The position numbers were made by a program, and so were the translations under genes. From positions 99,991 to 163,990 of the IMG/VR virus record IMGVR_UViG_3300018481_000001: a stretch of 64,000 nt of DNA. One strand, given 5' to 3'. This DNA comes from a virus. Of this stretch, positions 3,699 to 64,000 are shown piece after piece (position 1 is the first letter of the stretch; each line of letters starts with the position of its first letter). The notes below the pieces were generated by a model, which was not told where the DNA came from, ran no database searches, and saw only the letters and a list, made by a program, of their open reading frames with translations.

Positions 3699-6600
3699 GT
3701 GCCTGTCTTTCAAGACCAACAGGCCGTTGAGCAGCTGCTTTCTGGGCTGAATTCAATGCAAATGCAAGCGGGTTTGATGCCTGGGATGAGTCCCATGCCC
3801 AACCCGCTGGCAACTCAAACACAATACCAACAACAGCCGCCTATCCAGAGCGCGGCGCAGTTTTCTAATTATTTACGGGTACAGCATCAGGCCGATTTGT
3901 TTATGGCCTCGCCGATGTCGCCCATTTATGCAGGGGCGAGTCCTGTTGCGCGTAATCCGTATGCGCAAAGTGTTTTGCCACCGGCGCAACTAGGTTCTGG
4001 CTGGGGTATTGCACGGCAACAAACCCAAAATAATTTTAATGCCAACATTACCGGCGCGCAAACCGCCGTGGGAATCGGAGCACGGCTGGGATTAGGTAGC
4101 GTTGCAGCGACAGCGGGTGCCATGGCGGGTACCGCCTTGGGTGGTCCCATTGGCGGCGTTATTGGTGGATTTGTAGCGCCGTATATTGCAGATAGTTTTA
4201 TTGGCGAAAGTGTTGAGCGCGTCGCAACGCTGCCGTTCCGTAGTTTAATAAACCAGCGCCAGCGCGCCATGCAACTCCAACATGCAACGACGCAATTTAT
4301 GCGATCAGGGTCGGAGCTCAGCGCGTCGGGCATCGGATTGTCCAATACGGGTGCGTATGACCTAGAGCGCGGGATTACGCGCATGTCTGAGAGCACTGGT
4401 TTTCGCCGTGACACGCGCAATCAATTTAATCGACAAGACATGGTACGTATTACCCAGCTCGCTGCGCAAACGGGGTTACTCGATAATGCGCAAAGCGTGG
4501 ATCAAATCACGCGCGATATGGGAAAGATTGGTCGAGCGCTTACGACCTTTATGAAGGTGATGGATGAGCCGGATGTTCAGGCGGCAATGTCCATGATGGG
4601 TAAAATGCGTAACCTGGGCATGAATTTGCCGGAAATGGGCGTAGCAGCGCAGCATGCGCGTTCATTTGCACGGATGGCCGGAACGAACGTTCAGAACGTA
4701 ATGCAAGCGGGCATGCAAGGCGCGCAAATGTTCCAGGGCATGGGACTGAGCGGCGCTACCGGCTTGGCCACAGGAATGGCTGCAGTGGGTAATGCGGGTA
4801 TTTTGAGTGGTATGTTAGACCCGCGCCAATTGGCAATGCTGGGTGGTCGCGAAGGAATTACACAAAACCTTACCGCTGCAGCAGGTAACGTTTCGAATCT
4901 CGATGTTTTGTTGCCAGGTCTTTTGCGCAAGGGCAAAGGAGGCTTGGAAATTGACCAAGAGGCAATGCTGGGCCTGGCTAGTGGAAAACGAGACATTCAA
5001 GGAATGGTGCGCGAAAGCGCGCGGCGCATGGCCGGCTTTGGGCCACGTGGCTTTGTAGAGGAATATTCTACGCGCAAAAATGAATTGCGTGATCAATTGA
5101 TGGGTGCGTTCGGAGGCCAAGGCGCGATTTTGGCCCCCATGATGATCGCGCAAGGAATTGCGGCCACAGGTGCTACGGATTTCCGTGGTGGTCTGCGGCT
5201 ACAAGGTTTGAGCGAGGAGCAAGCGCGTACTATCGAGCTTGCGCGCACTCCTGAGTTTTTTCAGCGCATGCGCGCTCAAGCTGATAACCAAATGGAGCGC
5301 CGTCGTACGGAAGTAGATCGCCGTCGCGCTTCTTTTGAAGAAGCTAACGAAGCACGAAATCAGCGGTTAATGGCCAGCGTTGGTATTTCGGCTGTACGGC
5401 GACAAGGGCGGCTCCTAGGCCGTCAATTTGATAATTTTTTCCGAGAATTTGCTGGCGAAGACCAAGACACTGAGGAGCAACGGTTGTTTCTTGGTGGTGG
5501 CGATGTTTTGGCCCGTGCGCCCACCGGCAGCCTAGGTACCGAGGAACAGCTGCGTACCATTACGGAGCGTCTGGGCACAGCCGAAGGTCGAACACGTATC
5601 GCCGGCCGCATGACAGATTTAAATGCCACGCGTTTTCAACGAAATCGGGACCGCGACGAAACCTTAGAGAGGCAGGAACGTCAGCGCCGCACGATGTCGA
5701 TGTTTATGACGGCACCCGTCGCGAATTTGATTGATTCGTTTAGAGGAGAATCGGGTTTCTCATTATTTGATGATAGCCGTGGGTCTATCGGAAATCGTCG
5801 AGTATTGCGTAGAAACCAGTCTCGAGGAGCTCAGTGGGCTTTTGCCTTGGGTGCAGAGGACCTGGATGAAGAGCACGTTAAATCGCGTACGTGGGAAACG
5901 ATTCGTGGTGGAGAGCTTTTGCAGGAATCACGGACCCAAGGATTTAGTCGTGAGCGCAGTGCGGCTACCGAGCGTGCCTCGGGAATTACAGGCCGTGGGC
6001 AATATGATGAAGCAACTGCGGTGGCAGCGGCTGCTGCTAATCAATACATGAATGAACTAGGTTCGGGTTATTTCTCAAATAATAAAGGTTTTTCGCTCGA
6101 CGCTATGCGTAAACAAGTTTCGACTGCGCTGCAGACAACGCGGCGTATGTCTGAAAAAGATGCAAATCGTTTCGCCCAGAGCGACGCTATTACTCGAGAA
6201 TACCTCCGCCTTGGAGAAGGTGGCCGTACTGCAGAAGCACGTGCTGTGGCAGCCGCTGCAGAGTCTGCGGGTGGTGACCTCAAAGGTCTTGCTGGGGTGC
6301 GCGGTGATACGGTCACTGAAGAAATTGTCAATGCATCGCGCAACAAAGTTCTCGGGCGTTTGGGCATTAATTCTAGTGAATTGGAAACTTCGCAGGCCAA
6401 ACAGTTGCTCAATATTATGAGTGGTACCGGCGAAGAAGGTGCTATTCGTCGAAAGCTTTTTCAAGCACGCGCGCTGGCTGCAAGTGGCACGACAGAAGGT
6501 CAGCGAAAAGCAGCCATCCTGCAGCGTGAAGTCGAGCGCAGTGGGTTGTCGGAAGAAAAAATAGCTGAACTATCAGCAGCTGTGGCTGGCGTCGCCGATT

Positions 6601-9840: not shown

Positions 9841-12409
9841 TCTCAATGTTAATCGGGCCTATACCAATGCGTGGTTGGTATACATAAATGGCCTCGAAGT
9901 GCCTGTTTCATCCGTCAATGTTGCGTACGGCGTAGGGACGGTACCCGAGGCTGAAATTGTATTGGTACCTGATTCTGTCATGCAGCGGTTTGGGGCAGAA
10001 GATCGTGTTGCAGTTCAAGTATTTTATCTCGACCATTGGTATGGAAAAGAGCCAGAGTTCCGACTTTTGTTTGATGGAGAAATTGCCAGCTGGGGCTATG
10101 TCAATACACAACGTGGTCGTAGTATTAGTATTGTTGCCATAGATTATATTCAAATATTTACACAGATATTCTTCACGTTCATGTCGAATATCGACGACCT
10201 GGCAGCAGGGGCTTCTGCGGACGCAATTGGGCTTACTATCGCAGGAGTGCAGACCGCAGGTATGGCTGCACTTTTCCCGTACTCTCTTTTTGCACAAGGG
10301 CTTATTTCAGCAGGTGATGCTCCCACGCCGCTTATTAAACGCCCTGTTGATTACATATATAATTTGGTACGCGGTCTCATTCATACACAAATTCCAAACC
10401 GGTCCCTACCCGCTGCAGTATTTTTTTCTCCATGGGTACGGCGTACCAAGTTTCACAATCGGTTTATCGCCCTTCCCTACTTGGAAGAAAGCGACAACCC
10501 TGGAGTTTTTCCCGTGCTGCGCGCGGTACAGGCGCAATACGGGCTGCAAGCAGTTAGTGCCCTGACTAGCCACATTGGTAGCTCAGGCTCTTTGTGGGAC
10601 GTATTTTCGCAAGTACTGCAAACGCTCTTTATGGAGCTGGTTATGCTGCCTACTGCAGCTGCAGTGCAAAGCGATTACACGACGCTGCAGGTACGCGGGC
10701 CGGCGGTGGTCAGTAAGCCAACCAGTCCCATTTTCCTGACACAGTATTTTGTGAAACCACAAATGCTGTTTAGTTTGCCACCTTCATGCAACGTATTTTT
10801 TCCTTCGCAAATTGCGCATTTCAGTTATCAAGAACAATATGCGACGCAGCCGACACGAATTTATGTAAATGACCCCGGTTTGCCTACGCTACTTAACGCG
10901 CAAGGCCTCACGAGCGGGTTACAAAGTGTGGTGCGTGACGCGCAAACCGTCGCGTACCCTGATGCCATCGATGACGCGCGGATTGCTGCTGTGGGCAGAA
11001 ATCAGAGCACGTACAACGCAAAAAATGTTCTGTTGTATCCAGAAGAGTTTTTCCGTGGGCCGGTGGTGCGTAATATTCAAGCACCGCTTTGGTTTACGTT
11101 CTTGTCACGTGCTCAAGGAACGCAGCCTGACTACAAAGACAAAACTGAAGCCGAACAAATGGCTATTTTGCAGGCACGGCTGCCTGACGCAGACAGTAAA
11201 AACATATTTAGAAAGTATGCTGCGTATGAGCACATTAAAGCACGTTATGCACAGCGAAATGCGGGGCTAAGTTTGTCGGGGTTCAACCCCTACCCGGTTC
11301 CAGGATTCCCGTGTGCGGTATTTGATCGTCGCTCTTCGCAAGTCGATGTCCTTGGGTACATTACGCGTGTACAACACACGCTTACTACGCGAGAAATGTC
11401 GACAACAATTAGTATTGCGTACGGTCGCACGTTCTCGGAAAGCTTTGATTTATTGCAGGCACAAGCAGCGCGAGAAAATGCGAGTTCCGATTTAACACTG
11501 GAACGCGCAGGTGCAATTGCATTGGGACCACCCGAGCCGCTGCAAGAGATACGCGATATTACGCAGAACTTCGAGCGTGCCGAAGCGTTTTACGCATCGC
11601 TATTTCAGCGTGTGCCTGCAAAACAAACGGATGCACTGACTAGAGACCAGGTCAGCACAGAGTTTTCTAGATTACGTGCTGAACAAGCGCAAGCGCTGGG
11701 CGTGCCGTATCAGGAAGACCCTGTGCCGCGTACGACCAAGGCGGCCTCTTTTGACTATCGTGATATTATTCAATTTCGCACACCGCAGGGGAAAACAGAG
11801 CGTTTGTATTTGACAGGTTTGGACGGCACGTCTCGCACAACGTTCAAAAACATATTTGACAAAATGTTGGTGGGGGATGCTTCGAAAGAAGAAATCGCTT
11901 ACGTGAGCAATGCGCTGCAACAGGCTGCATTGCCTCAGATGTCAAAAGATGGATTTACGGATCCATCTGTTTTAGAACAAATTAAGCGCGCGCAGATTGA
12001 GATATATAAATTCCCTACTAAAACAAATATTCGTGGTGGAAATAAAGAAGTGGTGCCCACGCTGGAAGCCGCTGACCGCTTTGAAAGTCACGAACTCGCG
12101 ATGGCCTACAACGCGCGCCCGATCTGCACGCTGCATGAGTACATCGCGTTTTTGGGGGACGATGGCGATCCCCAAGGACTTGTGGCCGCGAATCAACCTT
12201 CGTCTGGCTGGGACACGCGTACTTTTGCTGCGGCCTACTACCAACGCATTCGAACCTATCGAACGGCGGTCTCGGACCCTGCAACCGGCAGCAATCAGCC
12301 GATGGCAGCGGATGCGCCGCCCGATTTTCCAGACCGCGTTGTAGACTGGGATGTCCTTCTGGAAGTGTATCGAAATAATTGTCTGCAGCGCCAAGGTCCC
12401 GGACGATGA
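9830..12409 (+). CDS. Putative baseplate hub protein
   Basis: N-terminus (VYINGLEVPVSSVNV...AEIVL...LLFDGEI) and late GYITRVQHTL resemble hub/tail-tip folds; position in the operon. Confidence 0.6.
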   Translation: MNSDLNVNRAYTNAWLVYINGLEVPVSSVNVAYGVGTVPEAEIVLVPDSVMQRFGAEDRVAVQVFYLDHWYGKEPEFRLLFDGEIASWGYVNTQRGRSISIVAIDYIQIFTQIFFTFMSNIDDLAAGASADAIGLTIAGVQTAGMAALFPYSLFAQGLISAGDAPTPLIKRPVDYIYNLVRGLIHTQIPNRSLPAAVFFSPWVRRTKFHNRFIALPYLEESDNPGVFPVLRAVQAQYGLQAVSALTSHIGSSGSLWDVFSQVLQTLFMELVMLPTAAAVQSDYTTLQVRGPAVVSKPTSPIFLTQYFVKPQMLFSLPPSCNVFFPSQIAHFSYQEQYATQPTRIYVNDPGLPTLLNAQGLTSGLQSVVRDAQTVAYPDAIDDARIAAVGRNQSTYNAKNVLLYPEEFFRGPVVRNIQAPLWFTFLSRAQGTQPDYKDKTEAEQMAILQARLPDADSKNIFRKYAAYEHIKARYAQRNAGLSLSGFNPYPVPGFPCAVFDRRSSQVDVLGYITRVQHTLTTREMSTTISIAYGRTFSESFDLLQAQAARENASSDLTLERAGAIALGPPEPLQEIRDITQNFERAEAFYASLFQRVPAKQTDALTRDQVSTEFSRLRAEQAQALGVPYQEDPVPRTTKAASFDYRDIIQFRTPQGKTERLYLTGLDGTSRTTFKNIFDKMLVGDASKEEIAYVSNALQQAALPQMSKDGFTDPSVLEQIKRAQIEIYKFPTKTNIRGGNKEVVPTLEAADRFESHELAMAYNARPICTLHEYIAFLGDDGDPQGLVAANQPSSGWDTRTFAAAYYQRIRTYRTAVSDPATGSNQPMAADAPPDFPDRVVDWDVLLEVYRNNCLQRQGPGR

Positions 12410-13110
12410 TGCTCACTCCACAGACCCAGGATAAAGACGCCGCGCTTTATGCGGCATGGAAAAAGTCGCGCTCGTCCAACGATATGGAGCAGCTTTTGCG
12501 ACAGCTCGACCCGCTTATTCAAGCTGAGGTTAACCGACGTTCGGGTACGTTGGCGCGGCCTTTATTGCTTGGGCAAGCCAAAATACTCACGGTCAAAGCA
12601 ATCGAGAATTACGACCCCACACGAGGCGCCAAACTCTCTACACACGTGACCAATCAGCTTCAAAAGCTGAGCCGTGTGAACTACGCGCATCAAAATGCGT
12701 TGCGTATTTCAGAGCACTCGATGGTGGCCTACCGCTCGTACAATATCGCGCTTGAGGATTTCAAAACTGACAATGGCCGTGAGCCCTCGAGCGAAGAGCT
12801 TGCGGATCATTTGAAGTGGAGCCCTAAAAAAGTAGAACAATTTAGGTCGCAGTTTAATCGGCCCGAATGGATTGAATCCAAGGAGGCGCCGTCCGATATG
12901 TTTACGCCTTACCAGCACGACCCTACGATTAATTACGCATATCAAAGTATGTCGCCACGACAGCAGACTATCTTTGATCATACGACAGGTTACCAGGGCG
13001 CTCCCAAGCTCAATAATACGCAAATCATGAAGAAACTAAAAATCACGCAGGGCGTGCTTAGTTACGAAAAGAACAAGGTCAAAGCGCTTTTGCAGCGCAC
13101 GCAGGACTGA
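12406..13110 (+). CDS. Sigma-70-like factor (phage)
   Basis: Region 2-like YDPTRGAKLSTHVTNQL, region 3-like GREPSSEELADHL, region 4-like SPRQQTIF...TQIMKKLKITQG; ATG overlaps the hub stop. Confidence 0.75.
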   Translation: MMLTPQTQDKDAALYAAWKKSRSSNDMEQLLRQLDPLIQAEVNRRSGTLARPLLLGQAKILTVKAIENYDPTRGAKLSTHVTNQLQKLSRVNYAHQNALRISEHSMVAYRSYNIALEDFKTDNGREPSSEELADHLKWSPKKVEQFRSQFNRPEWIESKEAPSDMFTPYQHDPTINYAYQSMSPRQQTIFDHTTGYQGAPKLNNTQIMKKLKITQGVLSYEKNKVKALLQRTQD

Positions 13111-45289: not shown

Positions 45290-46327
45290 CTATATCTCCT
45301 GAGAGAAATCCAAAGCGTCCGTATTGGGCGCCGTATCAGGCTGGCCATTCAAGGCACCCGTAGGCGGTCCTCCGGCCTCGAGCTGGCGCTGCGAATGTGC
45401 GTTCTGAAGAATCACAGCTTTCTTGTGATTGGCTTCGAAATAGTCGCACAACGTGTCGCAGATTTTCCGCGTTTGTTCGCTGGTCTTTTCACCCACGCGC
45501 ACGTTGAAGATGTAATACGCCGCCTTGGCACCTGTTTGTTGCTGTTTCTTTTCCACGCCGAGCTCAAACACTCTCGACCAGAGAGCGGGCTGCTGTGCGA
45601 GGGTTCGAATCTTCCTGCCCGCTGGTGCACTGGTTTTCAGAAACTCAACCCGGAAAATAGAATCCAGGTCCGCAGTCGCTGCGAAATAGGCATATCCCGC
45701 ACTGCACTCAGGACGCATTCCTTGCTGGAATTGGCCGTAGGGGCATTGCGCGCAGGCGCCATATCGTGTGCCAGTGACTGCATCGAGTGACTCACACTCG
45801 ACTCCGGCATTTCCACCGACTGCCCATTTCTTTCGCATGAGATGCGTGTAGATGGGCAAGATTTTCAAATGGTCGCCCACGTGCACACCCGAGGTGGTGT
45901 ACATATTTCCGGCACGGGTTTCGGCCGGCACGGCATCCTGTGAGGTCATGGCCTGCATTAGGCGCAGGTCGGGTACCTTTGCCTCCCCCGGACCATCAAT
46001 TCCACGAATTGCCGGGCTCGCCTGTTCGGCCAGCGCCATCACTTTATTTTGCAGATTTTCGTCTTCGATTGATTCCGCCAAATCAATCAACACGCCAGAA
46101 ATAGCCTGGAGCTTTTCTTCATATACAGCGATAGAGGAAGCTGTATTATCCGACAACTCCTGCGAGGGAGCGTTAGCAGCGACGTGCGCGGGGGCAGTCG
46201 TTGCAGCGGGTGCCGGGGCATTATTAGGGGTTGCTGCGGGCGCATTATTTGCGGCAGTCCCGTTGGCCGGTTGACCGTTGGCTGTGCCGCCGTTCGAAGC
46301 AGTATCGGACTTAATTTCTTTGGTCAT
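45290..46327 (-). CDS. Putative ssDNA-binding/recombination protein
   Basis: In the replication operon; disordered N-terminus, CAQC...C cluster, acidic/aromatic tail DALDFSQEI; GGAG SD. Confidence 0.45.
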   Translation of the reverse strand: MTKEIKSDTASNGGTANGQPANGTAANNAPAATPNNAPAPAATTAPAHVAANAPSQELSDNTASSIAVYEEKLQAISGVLIDLAESIEDENLQNKVMALAEQASPAIRGIDGPGEAKVPDLRLMQAMTSQDAVPAETRAGNMYTTSGVHVGDHLKILPIYTHLMRKKWAVGGNAGVECESLDAVTGTRYGACAQCPYGQFQQGMRPECSAGYAYFAATADLDSIFRVEFLKTSAPAGRKIRTLAQQPALWSRVFELGVEKKQQQTGAKAAYYIFNVRVGEKTSEQTRKICDTLCDYFEANHKKAVILQNAHSQRQLEAGGPPTGALNGQPDTAPNTDALDFSQEI

Positions 46328-46408
46328 GTTGTTGGCTCCCAAGGGCCTAGTGTTTGGAACGTGAGCTTACTGCCGTTTCCATACAAAACAATCGAAAAGG
46401 AGACAAAT

Positions 46409-47086
46409 ATGCAGCTTCGCAGTTCCGACGCATTAACGCGTTACTATCGTGAAGTCGAGGGCACGAGCATGCTCAGCGCTGAGCGTGAGCGTGAACTCAT
46501 ATGCATTTACCAGGAAAAACAGTGCCCTCGTGCACGCGATCTAATTATTAAAGGCGCTTTGCGCTATGTAATTGCTGAGGCTCGGAAACACCCCCGTAGT
46601 TTCAGCGAGCGCACAATTTTGGAAGATTTAATCGCCGCTGGCAATATTGGTTTAATTCGAGCCCTCAATAAATTCGACATTTCCGCTGGCACACGATTTC
46701 TTACCTACGCGAGCTGGTGGGTACGCCACGAGATTCGCGAAGAAAGCCGCCGTCTTGGTTTAGTACATGTCCCCGCTCATGCACTTGCTCGCGGAACGCG
46801 ACCTCCGATGACTTCCGAATTAACCGAAAACAGTGTAGCCGATGTGGTTTCGTATTTACAGACACCTTCGTTGGCTCTTGAAACAGCGCAGAGCCTTATT
46901 TATCTCTTCGAGTCAACGCAACTGACCACGCGTGAGATATTTATTATCAAGACGTCGTTCGGAATTCACACCGGACAAAAGACGCTTAAACAAATTGGAC
47001 GTCTCCTGGAACTGACCGGAGAACGTGTCCGGCAACTTCGAGAGACGGCCATTTTCAAGCTCCGGGGTGCCGCTGCGGAGTGCTAG
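46409..47086 (+). CDS. Sigma-70-family factor (RpoD/RpoS-like)
   Basis: Region 1.2 LTRYYREV...LSAERE, region 2 DLIAAGNIGLIRALNKFD...RFLTYASWWVR, region 4 TLKQIG...TGERVRQL; AAGGAG SD before ATG 46409. Confidence 0.9.
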   Translation: MQLRSSDALTRYYREVEGTSMLSAERERELICIYQEKQCPRARDLIIKGALRYVIAEARKHPRSFSERTILEDLIAAGNIGLIRALNKFDISAGTRFLTYASWWVRHEIREESRRLGLVHVPAHALARGTRPPMTSELTENSVADVVSYLQTPSLALETAQSLIYLFESTQLTTREIFIIKTSFGIHTGQKTLKQIGRLLELTGERVRQLRETAIFKLRGAAAEC

Positions 47087-54200: not shown

Positions 54201-54410
54201 CTATATACAGGGGGAGTAGCGCTCTAGGAAAGCCCAAGGAACCATCTCCATCATAGGTTTATGTTTTCTCGTAAATCTAATAAAAGCTGTAGCGGCAATC
54301 ACCGTGACCACTTCGCCAGTTTCATCATGTTTCCACTGACTGGGCACTTCAAAATTAACGGTATCGTAGCCATTAGGGACCCCATACCCCAGGCCCGTAT
54401 TACGTTTCAT
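54201..54410 (-). CDS. Hypothetical protein
   Basis: ATG 54410 is ATGA-coupled to the SNF2 stop. Confidence 0.55.
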   Translation of the reverse strand: MKRNTGLGYGVPNGYDTVNFEVPSQWKHDETGEVVTVIAATAFIRFTRKHKPMMEMVPWAFLERYSPCI

Positions 54411-56317
54411 GGCAATGCCTTTATCGTGGCAGTCTCCCGCTTCATCTCGCGGTCGAACTTGCATAGTTCATCGTACAACTTTATGTTATATTTATGACAA
54501 CGAGTGTAGTAGTCGTCGCACGTAGCGCATATCGCACTGCTCGTTACCAGTTGCGCAAAATCTATTTTTTGATCCAACGCTTTTGCTTTGGATTCATCCA
54601 AGGTGCCCCGGCCAATAAGCCGGTACACTACAACCGGTCGGTTTTGTCCGATGCGATAATTACGATCCATGGACTGCAGATAATGCTCAAGGCTCCAGGG
54701 TAAATTGTAATAGACGGTGTAGTTGGCCGCATTGAGCGTAATACCAATGCCAACAGCCACCTGTCCCAGGAACACGCGGCAGTCCGGATCTTCATTAAAG
54801 CTCTCCATTTTTTCTTGGAGTGCGGAACGCGTACATCCGCCTTGCAGTCGAACGAACTTGATGCCAAGGCCTTTTACCACTTTTTCAATATCATTTAGTT
54901 CAGTAATAAAATTAGCCCAAATAATAACCTTGTTGGTGTACTCCTGAAGAACAGTCTCGAGAAGGTCATGGCATGCCTCAAGTCGGGCATTTTCCGTCAA
55001 GCGCATCACATGCACAGGTAAATCTTTTTGAACCACCGTGCAGGCTTTGGTATACGGCTTAATGCGTTGCACGCTGCAGTTGGAAACACTCGGGCAGTCG
55101 TTGCAAATACCGGGGTTTTTACGCGTCAAATTAACAAAGCCGCTCGACGCCTGGTCAACTTTATTGAGCAGCGTTATGGCTTCATCAGCCACGATGTATG
55201 GCTCAAGCTCCGGGCCCGTGTTGACCGTGAGCTTTCCCTCAAGGATTTGTTGCCGTACAACAGCACCTGCCCCCAAATGCTTGTCATTGACCAACTGATT
55301 GTAGACGCGCTTTTGAGCATCTTCGACGGTAAATGGCACATCGATAATTTGTTGCAGCGGCAGATCCAAGCATTCTTCCTTCGTTTTCCGCAAACCAATC
55401 AACTGCACACGTTTATTAAGCAAATCGAAATTCTTGTAGCCGAGGAGGTTTCGGGGCATGGCTTCTTCGGCTTCATATTCATAAAAGAGCCCAAACTTTT
55501 TACGAAACTCCCAGTAGTTTTCTGGCGTGAGATATTTCGCTAAAAATTTGAGTTGGGGGTAGAGATCATAAGGAGAGCCTAACGAAGGAGTGCCCGACAA
55601 CAAAATACGGCGATAGGCACGCTGTGCGAGATGGATCGCGCTGAGGGTTCGTTTCGAATCGTGACTTTTAAGTTGGTGTGACTCATCGGCAACAATGCAG
55701 TTGTACTTGATGGCCAAAATCTCGTCGGCATACAGCGCAGCAGTGGCGTACGTGACGACCGTGGCGATGGGCGTGTGGGCCTGCGCCTGGGCAATCTTGG
55801 CCAGCTTCTCTTCTTTGCTGCCCTCCAAGACAACGACATCCGAGACGTCGCCGTGCTTCTGGAACTCCTCTGCCCAGGTTGTGAGCATCACACGAGGACA
55901 GAGGATGAGCAGCCGGTCGTCCGTGTACCTCTGTAGGTCGACCGTGATTTTGCACTTCCCCAGACCTGGAGCATAGAAAAGACCCGCGCGCGGGCAGCGC
56001 AGAAGATGAATGACGCCGTCTTTCTGGTGCTGGTAGGGCGAAGTGACAAAAGTAAAGTTGTCGGGCAGAACGACGGGTTGCTCTAGCTGTGTCACATGCG
56101 CCGAGGCACGGGAAGACAACTGCAAATTGGGAAAAGCTTCACGCAGCGATTTTAGAACCATTTTAAAAAATGGAAAAAACGCAGGAAAACGCCACGTCTG
56201 GTCTCCACCGAAGTATGTTCCGGCGTATACTTTCTTCACGGCGGCATCCGTGGTGCGCAACGAAAAGACCGGCGTGCCATATACATCACCGAGCTCAAGC
56301 AGAGGGTAGTTCGACAT
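54407..56317 (-). CDS. SNF2-family helicase
   Basis: YAPGLGKC (motif I), ADESHQLK, LSGTP, GIGITLNAA, QSMDRNYRIGQ; internal Cys cluster CNDC...C...C; start uncertain. Confidence 0.88.
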   Translation of the reverse strand: MSNYPLLELGDVYGTPVFSLRTTDAAVKKVYAGTYFGGDQTWRFPAFFPFFKMVLKSLREAFPNLQLSSRASAHVTQLEQPVVLPDNFTFVTSPYQHQKDGVIHLLRCPRAGLFYAPGLGKCKITVDLQRYTDDRLLILCPRVMLTTWAEEFQKHGDVSDVVVLEGSKEEKLAKIAQAQAHTPIATVVTYATAALYADEILAIKYNCIVADESHQLKSHDSKRTLSAIHLAQRAYRRILLSGTPSLGSPYDLYPQLKFLAKYLTPENYWEFRKKFGLFYEYEAEEAMPRNLLGYKNFDLLNKRVQLIGLRKTKEECLDLPLQQIIDVPFTVEDAQKRVYNQLVNDKHLGAGAVVRQQILEGKLTVNTGPELEPYIVADEAITLLNKVDQASSGFVNLTRKNPGICNDCPSVSNCSVQRIKPYTKACTVVQKDLPVHVMRLTENARLEACHDLLETVLQEYTNKVIIWANFITELNDIEKVVKGLGIKFVRLQGGCTRSALQEKMESFNEDPDCRVFLGQVAVGIGITLNAANYTVYYNLPWSLEHYLQSMDRNYRIGQNRPVVVYRLIGRGTLDESKAKALDQKIDFAQLVTSSAICATCDDYYTRCHKYNIKLYDELCKFDREMKRETATIKALP

Positions 56318-58037
56318 GAGTCTAAATCCAGGTTCGGAATTTCCGGGGTCAAGAAATTTGGGGGGATATGCCAACCCCATGCACGACTATATCAGTAGTT
56401 TTGCACCTCGGCAGCTCAAGCAGCTTTTCCGCTGGGTCGAGTATCTCTACTACAACTCGGCGCATATTTTCGCAGCTCTGAAGAAGTTCGCAGAATACCC
56501 CGTCACAAGTGTGACGATTGAATCGAGCGATGAGTCCCTCAAGAAGAATTGGGACCGCGTTCTTCATAAAAGCTTGAAGATTAAACATGTGTCGCTGGCA
56601 TGCGGGCTTGATCTGCAGCTTTACGGCAATTCGTTTACGTCCATGTATCATCCATTTAATCGCTTTTTGATTTGTGCGCACTGCAATGCACGCACAGGAA
56701 TTAAAAAAGTAAAATATAAATTCAATTTAAAAGAGTTAGAATTCAAATACCTGTGCCCTGCGTGTAAAAAAGATACGACAGGCACAGTCCGTGACGAAAA
56801 AGCTGCTGACGAAAAACGGATGAACGTAATTCGTTGGGACCCCAAACAGATCGACATTAACCACAATACGATTACGAACGAGTCCAAGTATTACTACACC
56901 ATCCCACAAGAGGATAAACAGAAGGTTGAAAAGGGCGACGCCCATCTGCTTAATACCATGCCCTTCGAGTTCATCCGGGCCATTAAAGAGGACAAGGTCT
57001 TCGAGTTCGCTGACGGTGCCATTTACCACATGAAGATCCCGGCACCTGCCGGTATTTCTTCTCAATGGGGCTTTCCACCGCTTACAACCACCATCAAGCT
57101 CTTCTTTTACACGGCAATCCTACGTAAGGCCAACGAAGCCGTTGCGTTCGAGCACATTCTACCTTTCCGTGTGCTCCACCCTGCCCCCATTAGCGGCGCA
57201 GCAGACCCCGCTACGACCATCAACCTCCAGCGCTTTCGCATGGAGCTTGAAGTCAATATTAAAAAATGGCGGCATGACCCCAACCACATTATGTTTTCGC
57301 CCGCAGCGCTGGGCGTCACCACGATGGGTGGCCAAGGGCGAAGTCTACTGACGCTTGGCGAAATTAAAGAAGCTGAAGAAGAAATCATTGCAGCCATGGG
57401 CGTGCCGCGTGAGTTTCTCTATGGCGGACTTTCATTTACAGGCAGCTCGATCACCCTGCGTATGCTCGAAAATCAGCTCGAGACGTATACCGGACAGCTC
57501 AACGAACAATTGAATTGGATTATCACACAAGCTGCCAAAGTACTCGGTTGGACGCCAGCGGAAGCCAAGTATACGCCCTTCAAGCTCATTGATGACACCA
57601 TGCAAAAGCAGACGTTGCTCGGTCTTGCGCAAGCCACACAGCAAATCTCGAACACGACGCTTTACGACATGAATGACATCAACATTAATGACGAGCGTAA
57701 AAAGCGCATGCAGGAAGCGCTTGACGAAACACGCTTCCAAATGGACCTGCAGCGTGAGACGCAGAAAATCCAAACTTCTTTGGCACAACAAGCGCAATCT
57801 GAAGCCGGTGGAAATGCGGGGCTCAACTACAACCCGCAGCAAGTTTTGGCGCAAGCGGAGAGCGTTGTCGACCAGCTGTCGCAAATGGACCCTGGTTCGC
57901 AGAAGTCCATGCTTTCGCAGCTATCACAAGAAGACCCGGTTATGTATGCCGTCGTGAAAGACCGCTGGCAAACACGCCAATCGCAGCAAAAACAACAGGC
58001 CGTCGCTGCCATGACGACGGGACAAGCGGCACAGTAA
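56316..58037 (+). CDS. Portal protein
   Basis: 573 aa; YANP...LFRW...KFAEYPVT N-terminus, zinc-ribbon insert, EEEIIAAMGVPREFL clip-like motif, Gln-rich crown; head-module context. Confidence 0.72.
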   Translation: MSLNPGSEFPGSRNLGGYANPMHDYISSFAPRQLKQLFRWVEYLYYNSAHIFAALKKFAEYPVTSVTIESSDESLKKNWDRVLHKSLKIKHVSLACGLDLQLYGNSFTSMYHPFNRFLICAHCNARTGIKKVKYKFNLKELEFKYLCPACKKDTTGTVRDEKAADEKRMNVIRWDPKQIDINHNTITNESKYYYTIPQEDKQKVEKGDAHLLNTMPFEFIRAIKEDKVFEFADGAIYHMKIPAPAGISSQWGFPPLTTTIKLFFYTAILRKANEAVAFEHILPFRVLHPAPISGAADPATTINLQRFRMELEVNIKKWRHDPNHIMFSPAALGVTTMGGQGRSLLTLGEIKEAEEEIIAAMGVPREFLYGGLSFTGSSITLRMLENQLETYTGQLNEQLNWIITQAAKVLGWTPAEAKYTPFKLIDDTMQKQTLLGLAQATQQISNTTLYDMNDININDERKKRMQEALDETRFQMDLQRETQKIQTSLAQQAQSEAGGNAGLNYNPQQVLAQAESVVDQLSQMDPGSQKSMLSQLSQEDPVMYAVVKDRWQTRQSQQKQQAVAAMTTGQAAQ

Positions 58038-60498: not shown

Positions 60499-63400
60499 AT
60501 GTCCGACCCCGTCACGCCTGTACTCCAATACCTCGACGACAGCCGTGGGCAGATCTACAAAAAGACTTTGGAAGGTCTCCAGGGTCTTTTTCCTATTTTA
60601 GGTAAAAACACCACCCTCGAGCTCAAAGACCTCAAGGTCAAACAAAAAGAATATTCGTCCAATGACGAAAAGGCTGCCTTGCTCAGCGGCCGAACGTTGC
60701 ATGAGCCTGTTCAAGGCATGCTCACGCTGCGCGACAACAAAACAGGAAAGGTGCTCGACACCCAGCAACACACGCTGCTGCATCTACCCTACTACACGCC
60801 GCGTCGTAGCTTTATTGTGGGCGGGAACGAGTACAACATTCCCGCGCAGCTTCGACTCAAGCCCGGCGTATATACGCGCGAACGCAACAACGGTGAGTTT
60901 GAAGCGGCATTCAATCTAAGCAAGGGCCGCAATTTTCAAATTTCCATGGAGCCCGAATCCGGAAAGCTCCACATGGAATTTGAGAATTCCAAAATACCTC
61001 TATATACGGTCCTGCGTTCTTTGGGCGTACAGGACGTCGAAATTAAAAAGTTCTGGGGCGCCGGACTTCAAGAGCTCAATGCCAAAGCTTCTCGCGAAAA
61101 AGAAGAAGCAGTATTGGCCAAGCTGATTGGCAAAATCAAGCGCACCAGCGAATCGATTCCCAACTCGCTCGAGGGGAAACGTAAATACGTACATGATTAT
61201 TTTGCAGCTACACGTATGAGCGGCAAAGTTACGCAGCGTACCCTTGGCACGCATTACGATTCGGTCAGTCCTGAATCCTTGTTGGTCGCAGCCAAGAAAC
61301 TCATCGACGTGCAAAAAGGCCATGCGCACGGAGACGACCGCGACAGTCTAGAATTTAAGACGGTGCATTCCGTTGATGATTTTTTTAAAGAGCGCCTCGA
61401 AAAAGACGCAAAGCGCACCATTGTTCGAAAGCTCGGTTTGCGTATGAATTACGCAGATAATCCTGTCATAAAAGAAATCGTGCCGAGTTCTTGCTTTACG
61501 AAGAGCATCAACGGTTTTGTGGTGCAGTCTGCGTTATCCAATCCACCGACTCAAATTAATCCGGTTGAGATTGTAGACCAGACGATGAAAATCACGTCGC
61601 TCGGAGAAGGCGGCATCAGTAGTACACGCGCCGTTACCAACGAGTCTCGCAAGGTTCACAACACACACCTTGGGATCATCGACCCCGTGCGCACGCCTGA
61701 CGGGGCCAAGGCGGGCATCGACGTGCGTCTGACTATGGCAGCCCATCGTGATGCTGCGGGTAACCTCTACGCCTATGCACGGGACGCCCGCACCGGCAAA
61801 ATGACCCATGTCGAAGCAACGCAGCTGGCCAAGAGTCACATCGCGTTCCCAGGTCAAGATGGACGCTCCCACTGGGATGTAATTCATGGAACCGAAGTCA
61901 TCTCGGTTCCCAAAGCCAAGGTTGATTACATCATCCCCAACCCGGCGTTCATGTTTACGCCGACAACAGCGCTAGTTCCTTTTATTAATGGAATGCAGGG
62001 AAATCGCGCCATCATGGGTGCGAAATTTCAAACGCAAGCGCTGCCGTTGGTTGAGCGCGAAGCGCCTTATATCCAAGCCGGTGCACCTCGAGCTGGCCAA
62101 AGCATGGAAAAAGAAATCGCACGATTAGTGCTTCCTACAGCGCCTGTCGATGGGACTGTTGAAAAAATTGACGACGATTATATTTACATTCGCCCGCATG
62201 CCAAAACAGCCGCAGCCAAAAGCGATCTTATTAAATTGCGCTACGACACCTATTTTCCTTTGGCATCCAAGACCTATTTGCACAATGACGTGCATGTCAA
62301 GGTAGGTGACAGTGTCAAAAAAGATCAAACCCTTGCCGAAAGCAATGCAACCCAAGGGGGTGTACTGGCACTCGGTAAAAATATGTCCATCGCCTACATG
62401 GCGTATTACGGGAAGAATTCCAATGATGCCGTGGTCATCAGCGAAGGCGCTGCCAAAAAACTAACCTCTGAGCACATGTACAAAGAAACATTGCTCAAAG
62501 ACGCAGAAACAGTGTTGGGTAAACATAAATATGGAATTTATTACGGCATGCGTTTTACGGCGATGCAGCTGGCCAAGTTAGACGAAAACGGCATTGCCAA
62601 AAAAGGCGCCAAACTTGATTTCGGAGACCCTGTTATTTTAGGTCTTAGAAAATCAGCACCCACGCCCGAAATGCAACTCTTGGGCAATTTCAACAAATCT
62701 CTAGTCAAACCTTACCGAGACGTTGCCGTAACGTGGGATCGGCCCAGCATTGGTTTTGTGCAAGACGTCACCAACGCTGCTCGACAAGTTATGGTCACAA
62801 TTCGTACGCAAGAACCTATGCGTATTGGCGACAAACTTGCCAATCGGTTTGGCGGCAAGGGCGTGGTGTCCGAAATTATTCCCGATGACCGCATGATTCA
62901 AGACGAGCGTAAAAAGCCCGTCGATATTTTGTTTACATCAGCGGGTGTCGTAAGTCGCATCAACCCAGCACAAATTGTCGAAGCAGCCCTTGGAAAAGTC
63001 GTAGAAAAAACAGGCAAGCCTATTATCATCCCGCAATTTCAAGCAGGGGATAACGTACAGTTTGCAAAAAACCTATTAAAAGAACACGGCCTCAAAGACA
63101 AAGAAACCGTACACGATCCAGTTTCTGGTCGTGATATTCACAACATCTTTGTGGGTCGATCTTATATTCACAAATTATTTAAGTCGACAGATACAAATTA
63201 TTCAGCACGCGGCGTAACCAACTACGACGCCAACATGCAACCTGTCCGTGGTGGTGACGAAGGTGCCAAGGGCCTAGGCAAAATGGAAATGAATGCCCTC
63301 TTGGCACACAACGCACGCAACGTGCTCAAAGAAGGTCTAACAATCAAGGGTGAACGTAGCGATGCCTTCTGGCGTGCCTTTGAATATGGGCTTCCCACAC

Positions 63401-64000
63401 CCCATGCTAAAAATCCATTTGTTTCTGATAAATTCGTTGCCATGTTGCAGGGCGCCGGAATTAACGTAAATAAAAATGGTTCCATGGTGTCACTCGCACC
63501 AATGACAGATCATGACATAACGCGCATGTCGTCAGGTGCCATTGGTACGCCGAGCCTTGAAAAATCAAAGAGCTTTATGCTCAACGCAAAAAATATGCAG
63601 CCTGAATCAGGCGGGTTATTTGACGCGAATCTTACAGGAGGTCTAAGCGGCACACGCTGGGCGCACATGGAATTGCCCGAGCCGGTGGTAAATCCTGTTT
63701 TCGAAGATCCCGTTCGTCGATTGCTTGGCTTTACCAAAAAAGAATTGCGCGAAGAGACTGGTAGAGTAGGTGGGCAAGCAATTCGCGAAAAACTCAATGC
63801 GCTCAAGCTAGATACTTTAGAAAAAGAACTGTATCAAAAAACAAAAACTGCGCGCGGTGTCGAGCTTGACAATGTTGTCAAACAGCTCAAAGCACTGCGT
63901 GCATTAAAGTCCGGCGGGTTCAGTAAAGCTGGAGATGCTTATACCCTTAGCCGCCTTCCTATCGTACCGCCCATTATGCGCCCTATCCTACCCTCACAGC
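60499..64000 (+). CDS. rpoBC: Multisubunit RNA polymerase beta-beta' fusion, partial (runs off right edge)
   Basis: Open frame from ATG 60499 to the window end. Beta motifs: DPVRTPDG, NRAIMGA, GDKLANRFGGKGVV (62827), GLGKMEMNAL. No stop before beta'-like PESGGLFD, WAHMELPEPV, LPIVPPIMRP. Confidence 0.9.
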   Translation, partial: MSDPVTPVLQYLDDSRGQIYKKTLEGLQGLFPILGKNTTLELKDLKVKQKEYSSNDEKAALLSGRTLHEPVQGMLTLRDNKTGKVLDTQQHTLLHLPYYTPRRSFIVGGNEYNIPAQLRLKPGVYTRERNNGEFEAAFNLSKGRNFQISMEPESGKLHMEFENSKIPLYTVLRSLGVQDVEIKKFWGAGLQELNAKASREKEEAVLAKLIGKIKRTSESIPNSLEGKRKYVHDYFAATRMSGKVTQRTLGTHYDSVSPESLLVAAKKLIDVQKGHAHGDDRDSLEFKTVHSVDDFFKERLEKDAKRTIVRKLGLRMNYADNPVIKEIVPSSCFTKSINGFVVQSALSNPPTQINPVEIVDQTMKITSLGEGGISSTRAVTNESRKVHNTHLGIIDPVRTPDGAKAGIDVRLTMAAHRDAAGNLYAYARDARTGKMTHVEATQLAKSHIAFPGQDGRSHWDVIHGTEVISVPKAKVDYIIPNPAFMFTPTTALVPFINGMQGNRAIMGAKFQTQALPLVEREAPYIQAGAPRAGQSMEKEIARLVLPTAPVDGTVEKIDDDYIYIRPHAKTAAAKSDLIKLRYDTYFPLASKTYLHNDVHVKVGDSVKKDQTLAESNATQGGVLALGKNMSIAYMAYYGKNSNDAVVISEGAAKKLTSEHMYKETLLKDAETVLGKHKYGIYYGMRFTAMQLAKLDENGIAKKGAKLDFGDPVILGLRKSAPTPEMQLLGNFNKSLVKPYRDVAVTWDRPSIGFVQDVTNAARQVMVTIRTQEPMRIGDKLANRFGGKGVVSEIIPDDRMIQDERKKPVDILFTSAGVVSRINPAQIVEAALGKVVEKTGKPIIIPQFQAGDNVQFAKNLLKEHGLKDKETVHDPVSGRDIHNIFVGRSYIHKLFKSTDTNYSARGVTNYDANMQPVRGGDEGAKGLGKMEMNALLAHNARNVLKEGLTIKGERSDAFWRAFEYGLPTPHAKNPFVSDKFVAMLQGAGINVNKNGSMVSLAPMTDHDITRMSSGAIGTPSLEKSKSFMLNAKNMQPESGGLFDANLTGGLSGTRWAHMELPEPVVNPVFEDPVRRLLGFTKKELREETGRVGGQAIREKLNALKLDTLEKELYQKTKTARGVELDNVVKQLKALRALKSGGFSKAGDAYTLSRLPIVPPIMRPILPSQ

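Follow-up and report, generated by a model that had tools for sequence, protein, structure and literature searches.

A phage gene that joins RNA polymerase beta to the N-terminal half of beta-prime, with the C-terminal half encoded as a second chain

The locus and its two RNA polymerase chains

At the 3' end of a 64,000-nucleotide stretch of viral DNA, hereafter the window, we examined a large open reading frame (ORF) that matches the beta and beta-prime subunits of multisubunit RNA polymerase (RNAP). The window comprises bases 99,991-163,990 of the 179,934-bp record IMGVR_UViG_3300018481_000001 of an uncultured phage; the record has direct terminal repeats and is rated complete, and sequence past the window end was read from the same record (L002, genome 160,000-179,934). 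An ATG at window position 60499 on the plus strand opens a frame that runs without a stop to the window end, with 1167 codons and an open 3' end. It continues for 296 codons (about 881 nt) and stops at genome position 164880, giving a full ORF of 1463 amino acids (aa; L002:490-4881), here called chain 1. The first-pass annotation of the window had pointed out that this gene was absent from the program-made ORF list, and the open 3' end is the probable cause of the omission. Pfam analysis of chain 1 identified Rpb2_6, Rpb2_3, Rpb1_1 and Rpb1_2, and the gene encodes the large subunit of a bacterial-type multisubunit RNAP, rebuilt as two polypeptides in this phage lineage. The coordinates of the individual features are given in Table 1.

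Although the first-pass annotation had described a single-chain beta-beta-prime enzyme, the ORF stops at residue 1463 and the rest of beta-prime is a separate gene, chain 2 (P0003, 603 aa, L002:5424-7235), located 0.5 kb downstream. Chain 2 corresponds to the C-terminal half of beta-prime, containing Rpb1_5 (PF04998) and matching beta-prime chains in the PDB from about residue 600 onward (E 1e-36). Chain 1 terminates 88 residues past the catalytic motif NLDYDGD. Chain 2, a polypeptide apart from the catalytic barrel, carries the bridge helix, a trigger loop that includes its His, and an intact second zinc site (Cys 212, 269, 276 and 279; CGT...C..C..C). The catalytic residues, flap tip, lid and clamp helices are all retained across the enzyme. 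The two spacer ORFs between the chains possess their own starts and Shine-Dalgarno (SD)-like sequences, a single nucleotide separates the TGA of the second one (P0006; 5420-5422) from the chain 2 ATG (5424), and the chain 1 and chain 2 genes are in one tightly packed operon.

When compared with relatives that carry both halves of beta-prime on one polypeptide, the last residues of chain 1 (..ILIQELDA) directly abut the first residues of chain 2 (MAKTLGHYLL..), which marks the split, as judged by alignment, as a clean fission with nothing lost. The identical break was found at all 13 examined loci carrying both genes, namely 10 IMG/VR contigs, Salmonella phage Arash, Vibrio phage D69 and this genome. 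Chain 2 lies about 0.5-4.8 kb downstream of chain 1 across these loci, and the spacer of Arash includes opposite-strand genes. Recoding across the chain 1 stop was rejected in view of the spacer ORFs with their own starts and of the variable spacers. Aligned with the cyanobacterial gamma subunit (626 aa), chain 1 ends at gamma residue ~563, and residue 47 of chain 2 pairs with residue 38 of RpoC2; these correspondences place the break close to, though not necessarily at, that of cyanobacterial and plastid beta-prime.

Table 1. Positions of the RNAP gene, its sub-features and associated genes (window positions unless marked L002 or genome)
Feature	Position	Strand	Evidence or context
SigmaB, divergent sigma-70 family, orthologue of Arash virion protein Gp10	12379..13110	+	phmmer 6.9e-34; Sigma70_r3; NCBIfam sigma models
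SigmaA, sigma-70 family, regions 2 and 4	46184..47086	+	Region 4 above Pfam cut-off
SNF2-type helicase beside the portal/RNAP block	54407..56380	-	Synteny common to Arash and Vibrio phage D69
Portal protein gene; the RNAP gene lies 2.4 kb further downstream	56316..58037	+	Match to Arash portal Gp204 (549 aa aligned, 33% identity, E 5e-110)
RNAP chain 1 gene (beta fused to beta-prime N-terminal half), window part	60499..64000	+	Open frame; PDB and Pfam matches
Beta moiety, residues 1 to about 994, without proteobacterial insertions	60499..63480	+	PDB, Pfam, RpoB alignment
Rifampicin cluster I equivalent	61516..61605	+	Alignment with Salmonella RpoB
Beta flap-tip helix PTPEMQLLGNF, docking site of sigma region 4	62659..62691	+	Alignment
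RFGGKG within GDKLANRFGGKG	62845..62862	+	RpoB alignment
Fusion junction, beta C-terminus (..GINVNKNGS) to beta-prime at about residue 18 (MVSLAPMTD..)	63469..63501	+	Salmonella RpoB/RpoC alignment
Stub LSGTR in place of the four-Cys zinc-binding domain	63643..63657	+	Alignments
Spacer ORF 1, 62 aa	L002:4878-5066 (genome 164877-165065)		Starts in GTGA overlap with chain 1 stop
Spacer ORF 2 (P0006), 117 aa	L002:5069-5422 (genome 165068-165421)		TGA at 5420-5422

Fusion junction, missing zinc-binding domain and beta moiety

The beta C-terminal motif AMLQGAGINV is located at 63439-63468, in agreement with the position given earlier. Alignment with Salmonella RpoB and RpoC revealed that the initial 17 beta-prime residues are gone at the junction and that there is essentially no linker. 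Past this point the same frame matches PDB beta-prime chains with E values of 1e-41 to 1e-42, and the beta-prime part contains PF00623 (1e-18) and the motif NLDYDGD (residues 1369-1375) with all three Asp. The beta to beta-prime junction proposed in the first-pass annotation is thus real: the frame crosses it without a stop, and the DxDGD motif, which was searched for in the continuation, is present, so that neither of the two observations named beforehand as able to refute the fusion was made. An AlphaFold model of residues 930-1463 had a mean predicted local distance difference test (pLDDT) score of 86.4, and Foldseek matched it to bacterial beta-prime and cyanobacterial gamma chains with template modelling (TM) scores of 0.49-0.57. 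The Foldseek result lacks a residue-level alignment, and the zinc-domain deletion described next therefore rests on sequence alignments.

The motifs GLFDANLTGG (63613-63642) and WAHMELPEP (63658-63684) are parted by LSGTR alone, while aligned Salmonella, Acinetobacter and Enterococcus beta-prime proteins have a four-Cys zinc domain of ~33 residues at this site. The absence of the zinc-binding domain noted in the first reading was thereby borne out, five residues replacing about 33. In each of the 112 family members analyzed (112/112), the columns that correspond to residues 66-98 of Salmonella beta-prime are occupied by 2-3 residues, none of them Cys, whereas the beta-prime of Rhizobium phage Y65 retains all four Cys. 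This distribution identifies the loss, by alignment, as specific and ancestral to the phage RNAP family, and as a clean excision. The zinc domain has been described as common to all multisubunit RNAPs (PMC7618050). The AR9 non-virion RNAP likewise lacks it (PMC7618050), and a Thermus RNAP engineered to carry three alanines instead of zinc-domain residues 57-80 is active in transcription, with normal Rho-dependent release of RNA (PMC9908020). As these two enzymes indicate, loss of the domain is compatible with activity. The channel through which RNA exits is lined by this domain, to which the put RNA of HK022 (PMC9378689) and Rho (PMC9908020) bind.

Residues 1 to about 994 of chain 1 constitute RNAP beta, with matches to Thermus beta in the PDB (E 1.3e-67), PF00562 (Rpb2_6; 2.5e-41) and PF04565 (Rpb2_3; 4e-11). 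The hallmarks of a bacterial-type beta were all found: Rpb2 domain 6 with its double-psi barrel, two active-site lysines (E. coli K1065 and K1073, both retained in GDKLANRFGGKG), the fork domain (Rpb2_3) and a flap with its tip helix. The beta part is compact, as was first suggested, since three segments of E. coli beta (229-347, 939-1049 and 1125-1178) have no equivalent in the alignment. The motif RFGGKG, reported earlier in place of RHGNKG, is present in this genome but constitutes a local variant; at the same place relatives show RHGNKG, RYGNKG or still other versions. Based on the known rifampicin resistance hot spots, the replacement of E. coli D516, H526 and S531 by T, Q and T in the phage beta (Salmonella RpoB alignment) suggests poor drug binding, and the phage RNAP is probably insensitive to rifampicin. 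Chain 1 is also unusually Cys-poor for a polymerase subunit, with C332 being the sole cysteine in 1463 aa.

Family, phylogeny and comparison with other polymerases

An exhaustive profile-free search with residues 930-1463 revealed at least 150 clusters at 50% identity, all with E < 1e-91. Nearly all of the 150 cluster representatives hold the junction in one protein, the few others being fragments that start after it. More than 120 clusters at 90% identity show 50-91% identity over query residues 850-1463; their members are mostly 1460-1480 aa long, some being longer through inteins. Members of the family include Salmonella phage Arash and Vibrio phages D69, D148 and D181. In 42 of the 266 family proteins, the C-terminal half of beta-prime is also included, making these true single chains of about 2000-2080 aa; one of them, P0195 (2064 aa), carries Pfam domains from Rpb2_6 through Rpb1_5 on one polypeptide. 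Many chain 1 homologues (P0023, P0028, P0059, P0086, P0106 and others) reach 1800-2100 aa via LAGLIDADG-type inteins (PF14528), and P0023 has one intein directly after the conserved TPE of beta. The chain 1 copy of this genome is without an intein.

For phylogenetic analysis, a quick maximum-likelihood (ML) tree was built under LG+G4 from the N-terminal part of beta-prime, with three bacterial sequences as the root and Y65 as the next outgroup. The family was monophyletic (Shimodaira-Hasegawa-like approximate likelihood ratio test, SH-aLRT, 100%), and the Y65 beta-prime was its nearest outgroup. Single-chain forms constituted a basal grade, and 77 two-chain forms were nested in one group of 81; the tree requires a minimum of two changes. 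This basal branching of the single-chain forms suggests that fusion may have come first and fission later, and that the split seen here is derived. Rhizobium phage RHph_Y65 (MN988525.1) belongs to the Kleczkowskaviridae, and its beta-prime (L028:5755-9138) is an unsplit and unfused protein of 1127 aa with the four-Cys domain.

The closest described counterpart is that of Arash (OQ632216.1; PMC10585845), which encodes Gp206 (1525 aa), Gp216 (606 aa) and the sigma factor Gp10. Homology to the proteins of Arash and of Vibrio phages D69, D148 and D181 is full-length, with 36% and 34% identity, respectively, over 99% of chain 1. The split into a beta-beta-prime-N and a beta-prime-C chain, the fusion point and the zinc-domain loss are common to both, as are the portal upstream and a Gp10-type sigma; in the present genome no alpha or omega was found. 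The relationship is nevertheless distant, at about 35% identity. Nine genes lie between the two chains in Arash versus two small ORFs here, and a stretch of about 40 residues that follows the site of zinc-domain loss is retained in Arash and D69 but missing from the clade of this phage. In the Arash paper the proteins are called simply beta and beta-prime, and the fusion, the split and the missing domain are not described. The single-chain sister lineages (e.g., P0195) show 38-41% identity and have the same junction and zinc-domain loss, but their polypeptide continues through Rpb1_5, in contrast to the break after the catalytic barrel here.

Among cellular enzymes, the Helicobacter and Wolbachia rpoBC genes are beta-beta-prime fusions, Helicobacter having a similar head-to-tail link of beta to beta-prime. 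Cellular fused or split enzymes keep the zinc domain, the alpha dimer (alpha2) and omega, unlike the phage enzyme, and we know of no cellular enzyme that combines a beta-beta-prime fusion with a beta-prime split. In cyanobacteria and plastids, where beta-prime is split into gamma/RpoC1 and RpoC2 (PDB 8gzg, 8syi), the break is a few tens of residues away. The phiKZ/AR9-type enzymes (PMC7598289, PMC7824862, PMC7618050) are likewise phage-encoded and without alpha or omega, and their beta-prime is broken past the catalytic barrel. One form of them is packaged in virions, their genes are linked to that of an SNF2 helicase, and the AR9 non-virion RNAP shares the missing zinc domain. However, their sequences are much more distant (about 22% identity over a partial alignment), with beta in 2-3 pieces, no sigma-70 and two paralogous sets, whereas here beta is whole and fused, two sigma-70 genes are present and there is one set. 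Bacterial-like beta and beta-prime are also borne by mReC Caudovirales (PMC7481178), where they are deep-branching, and by Y65, whose beta-prime has the unsplit, unfused form described above. In the text of the mReC paper, fusion is mentioned for crAssphage only and not for the mReC clade, and no names suited to a comparison with the present family are listed. The Moraphages (PMC12619734) were examined and set aside as unrelated, having no RNAP.

Sigma factors, virion association and proposed function

The phage sigma factors assumed in the first-pass annotation are present: two genes of the sigma-70 family, designated sigmaA and sigmaB, were identified in the window, with Sigma70_r3 of sigmaB above the Pfam cut-off, and both recur in related contigs wherever the fragment extends far enough. 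Alignments of sigmaA with its homologues in relatives, which have open frames of about 230 aa, begin only at residue 72-79, and the real sigmaA start probably lies about 70 codons into the longest ORF. Two related contigs have an in-frame TGA inside the stretch matching sigmaA. The genome holds one beta/beta-prime set, and a second RNAP set was rejected on the basis of the single Rpb2_6 locus and the single Rpb1_2 locus. Searches of the phage genome with RNA_pol_A_bac, RNA_pol_L and Rpb6/omega gave no matches, while all 14 control genomes matched (14/14).

The core retains the docking elements for sigma, i.e., the flap tip and clamp helices, with clamp-helix contact residues that depart from the bacterial consensus. 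The E. coli beta-prime residues R275, R278 and E295, which we take to be host sigma region 2 contacts, are not conserved and are replaced in the family by A/V/S, A/Q/S and L/E/A. These differences are consistent with co-evolution with the phage sigmas, and we infer from them that the enzyme would pair with the phage sigmas rather than with a host sigma. The first-pass annotation had also linked the absence of the zinc domain to promoters that lack a -35 element. We found no support for this idea: region 4 of sigmaA and the flap tip are both retained, and in the literature examined nothing was found that ties the zinc domain to -35 recognition. In a k-mer analysis of 100 intergenic regions, AT-rich words such as TTTAAATA and TATTTAAA were enriched (8-fold for 8-mers), and expectation-maximization (EM) of the zero-or-one-occurrence-per-sequence (ZOOPS) type on 96 upstream regions from crude gene calls gave a weak AT-rich GTATATTTAA-like motif of 5.6 bits, which may be a -10-like element. 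Given the weakness of this motif, sigma dependence is inferred from the gene content and the conserved docking elements.

In each of the relatives examined, the RNAP gene is flanked by the portal gene on one side and by structural genes on the other, and here a homologue of an Arash structural protein is located downstream of it. In Arash particles, Gp206 was the most-detected protein, with 100% coverage, and Gp216, the sigma Gp10 and helicases were also detected (PMC10585845). By analogy with Arash, the RNAP is likely delivered in the virus particle. Because a Swi2/Snf2 helicase is linked to RNAP genes in phiKZ-type phages too (PMC7824862), the neighboring SNF2-type helicase may act as a RapA-like partner.

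Taken together, chain 1 consists of a complete beta followed head-to-tail by beta-prime, which begins at about residue 18 and ends shortly after the Mg-binding double-psi barrel, and chain 2 provides the bridge helix and trigger loop together with the second zinc site. In the scheme that we propose, the covalent link of beta to beta-prime would replace the alpha dimer as the assembly scaffold. The RNAP complex and sigmaB would be packed in the head and injected, and the injected enzyme would transcribe early genes without recourse to the host polymerase. With the zinc domain gone, the enzyme would be deprived of a docking site in the RNA exit channel for regulators of the host or of rival phages, and not of a promoter-reading element. 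We consider a two-chain, zinc-less phage RNAP with its own sigmas, delivered by the virion for early transcription, to be the best explanation overall, with a probability of roughly 0.7. A more far-reaching version is held tentatively, a little short of an even chance: a minimal, self-sufficient sigma-dependent RNAP of two chains plus a phage sigma, without alpha, omega or zinc domain, which would be virion-injected, carry out rifampicin-insensitive early transcription, and have arisen by fusion followed by re-breaking near the cyanobacterial site.

Several points weigh against these proposals. The tree in which the split is derived is a quick LG+G4 tree with weak backbone support (83-94) and a distant root. 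A clear promoter motif was not recovered in the 100 intergenic or 96 upstream regions. Virion packaging rests on a 36%-identical orthologue in Arash, whose authors allow for co-purification of abundant enzymes with the particles (PMC10585845). A candidate head-loading leader motif, Y..GQRAA..KLG[LF], occurs on eight ORFs (the two spacer ORFs and six ORFs at genome 23-32 kb) and was sought on both RNAP chains and the sigmas, where it is absent, its absence from the chains being the point of concern. Finally, the sequence is also compatible with the use of host alpha or omega. As a separate observation, the motif is internal in spacer ORF 2, so the real start of that ORF may be further downstream.

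As one alternative, the enzyme would be a non-virion polymerase that the infected cell produces for middle or late genes, with the host polymerase reading the early genes and the detection in Arash particles reflecting abundance or carry-over. The carry-over named by the Arash authors (PMC10585845) would allow this, as would the chains lacking the leader-like motif of eight other ORFs and the presence of one RNAP set here, when phiKZ-type injectors have a second, non-virion set (PMC7598289). That Gp206 was the single most-detected protein of the Arash particle, accompanied by Gp216, Gp10 and helicases, and that the gene keeps its place between portal and structural genes in each relative, makes this reading rather unlikely in our view. 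We also regard as unlikely a hybrid enzyme that is not self-sufficient, in which the two phage chains would work with host alpha2 and/or omega, or with a host sigma. Bacterial beta and beta-prime are inactive without the alpha dimer (PMC7618050), phage alpha and omega were not found in the genome, and the beta and beta-prime parts are clearly bacterial-type, with 27-28% identity to cellular enzymes. On the other hand, the phiKZ and AR9 enzymes function without alpha or omega (PMC7598289, PMC7618050), and the covalent beta to beta-prime link offers another assembly route. Moreover, the phage retains two sigmas of its own, and the presumed host sigma contacts of the clamp helices are not conserved.

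Far less probable than either is a true single chain produced by readthrough, frameshift, splicing or an assembly error at the stop after residue 1463. Single-chain relatives of ~2050 aa do exist, and both halves are collinear with them; yet the two spacer ORFs have their own starts and SD-like sequences, the spacer ranges from 0.5 to 4.8 kb with opposite-strand genes within it in Arash, the break recurs in independent assemblies and cultured phages, and Gp206 and Gp216 were separate proteins in the Arash proteomics. That the gene is a non-functional remnant, either a host-derived rpoBC fragment in decay or the product of chimeric assembly, has a negligible probability and is contradicted by its conservation, given the intact 1463-codon frame with all catalytic motifs kept, the conservation in at least 150 clusters at 50% identity and the confident fold (mean pLDDT 86.4).

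The two-chain, virion-delivered RNAP favored here differs from what has been reviewed to date, as reviews of phage multisubunit RNAPs cover only split, sigma-less enzymes (PMC7598289, PMC7824862). No description of a beta-beta-prime-N fusion or of a virion, sigma-dependent phage RNAP was found in the literature searched, which covered few subscription journals. GenBank already contains members of the family, annotated simply as beta and beta-prime, and their occurrence in virions has been reported in one paper. The genes themselves were known before; the novelty lies in their architecture and in what it means. The alpha dimer is considered necessary for bacterial RNAP assembly, and this lineage would represent a recognizably bacterial, sigma-paired core that dispenses with alpha, omega and the zinc domain. 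With its fully fused and re-split forms of the large subunits, the lineage offers a natural experiment on the minimum for sigma-dependent transcription and on the evolution of subunit boundaries. If packed in the virion, the enzyme would be a bacterial-type, sigma-using counterpart of the injected polymerases of phiKZ and N4. These proposals are testable in a cultured relative, Salmonella phage Arash, in whose particle the orthologues have already been detected.

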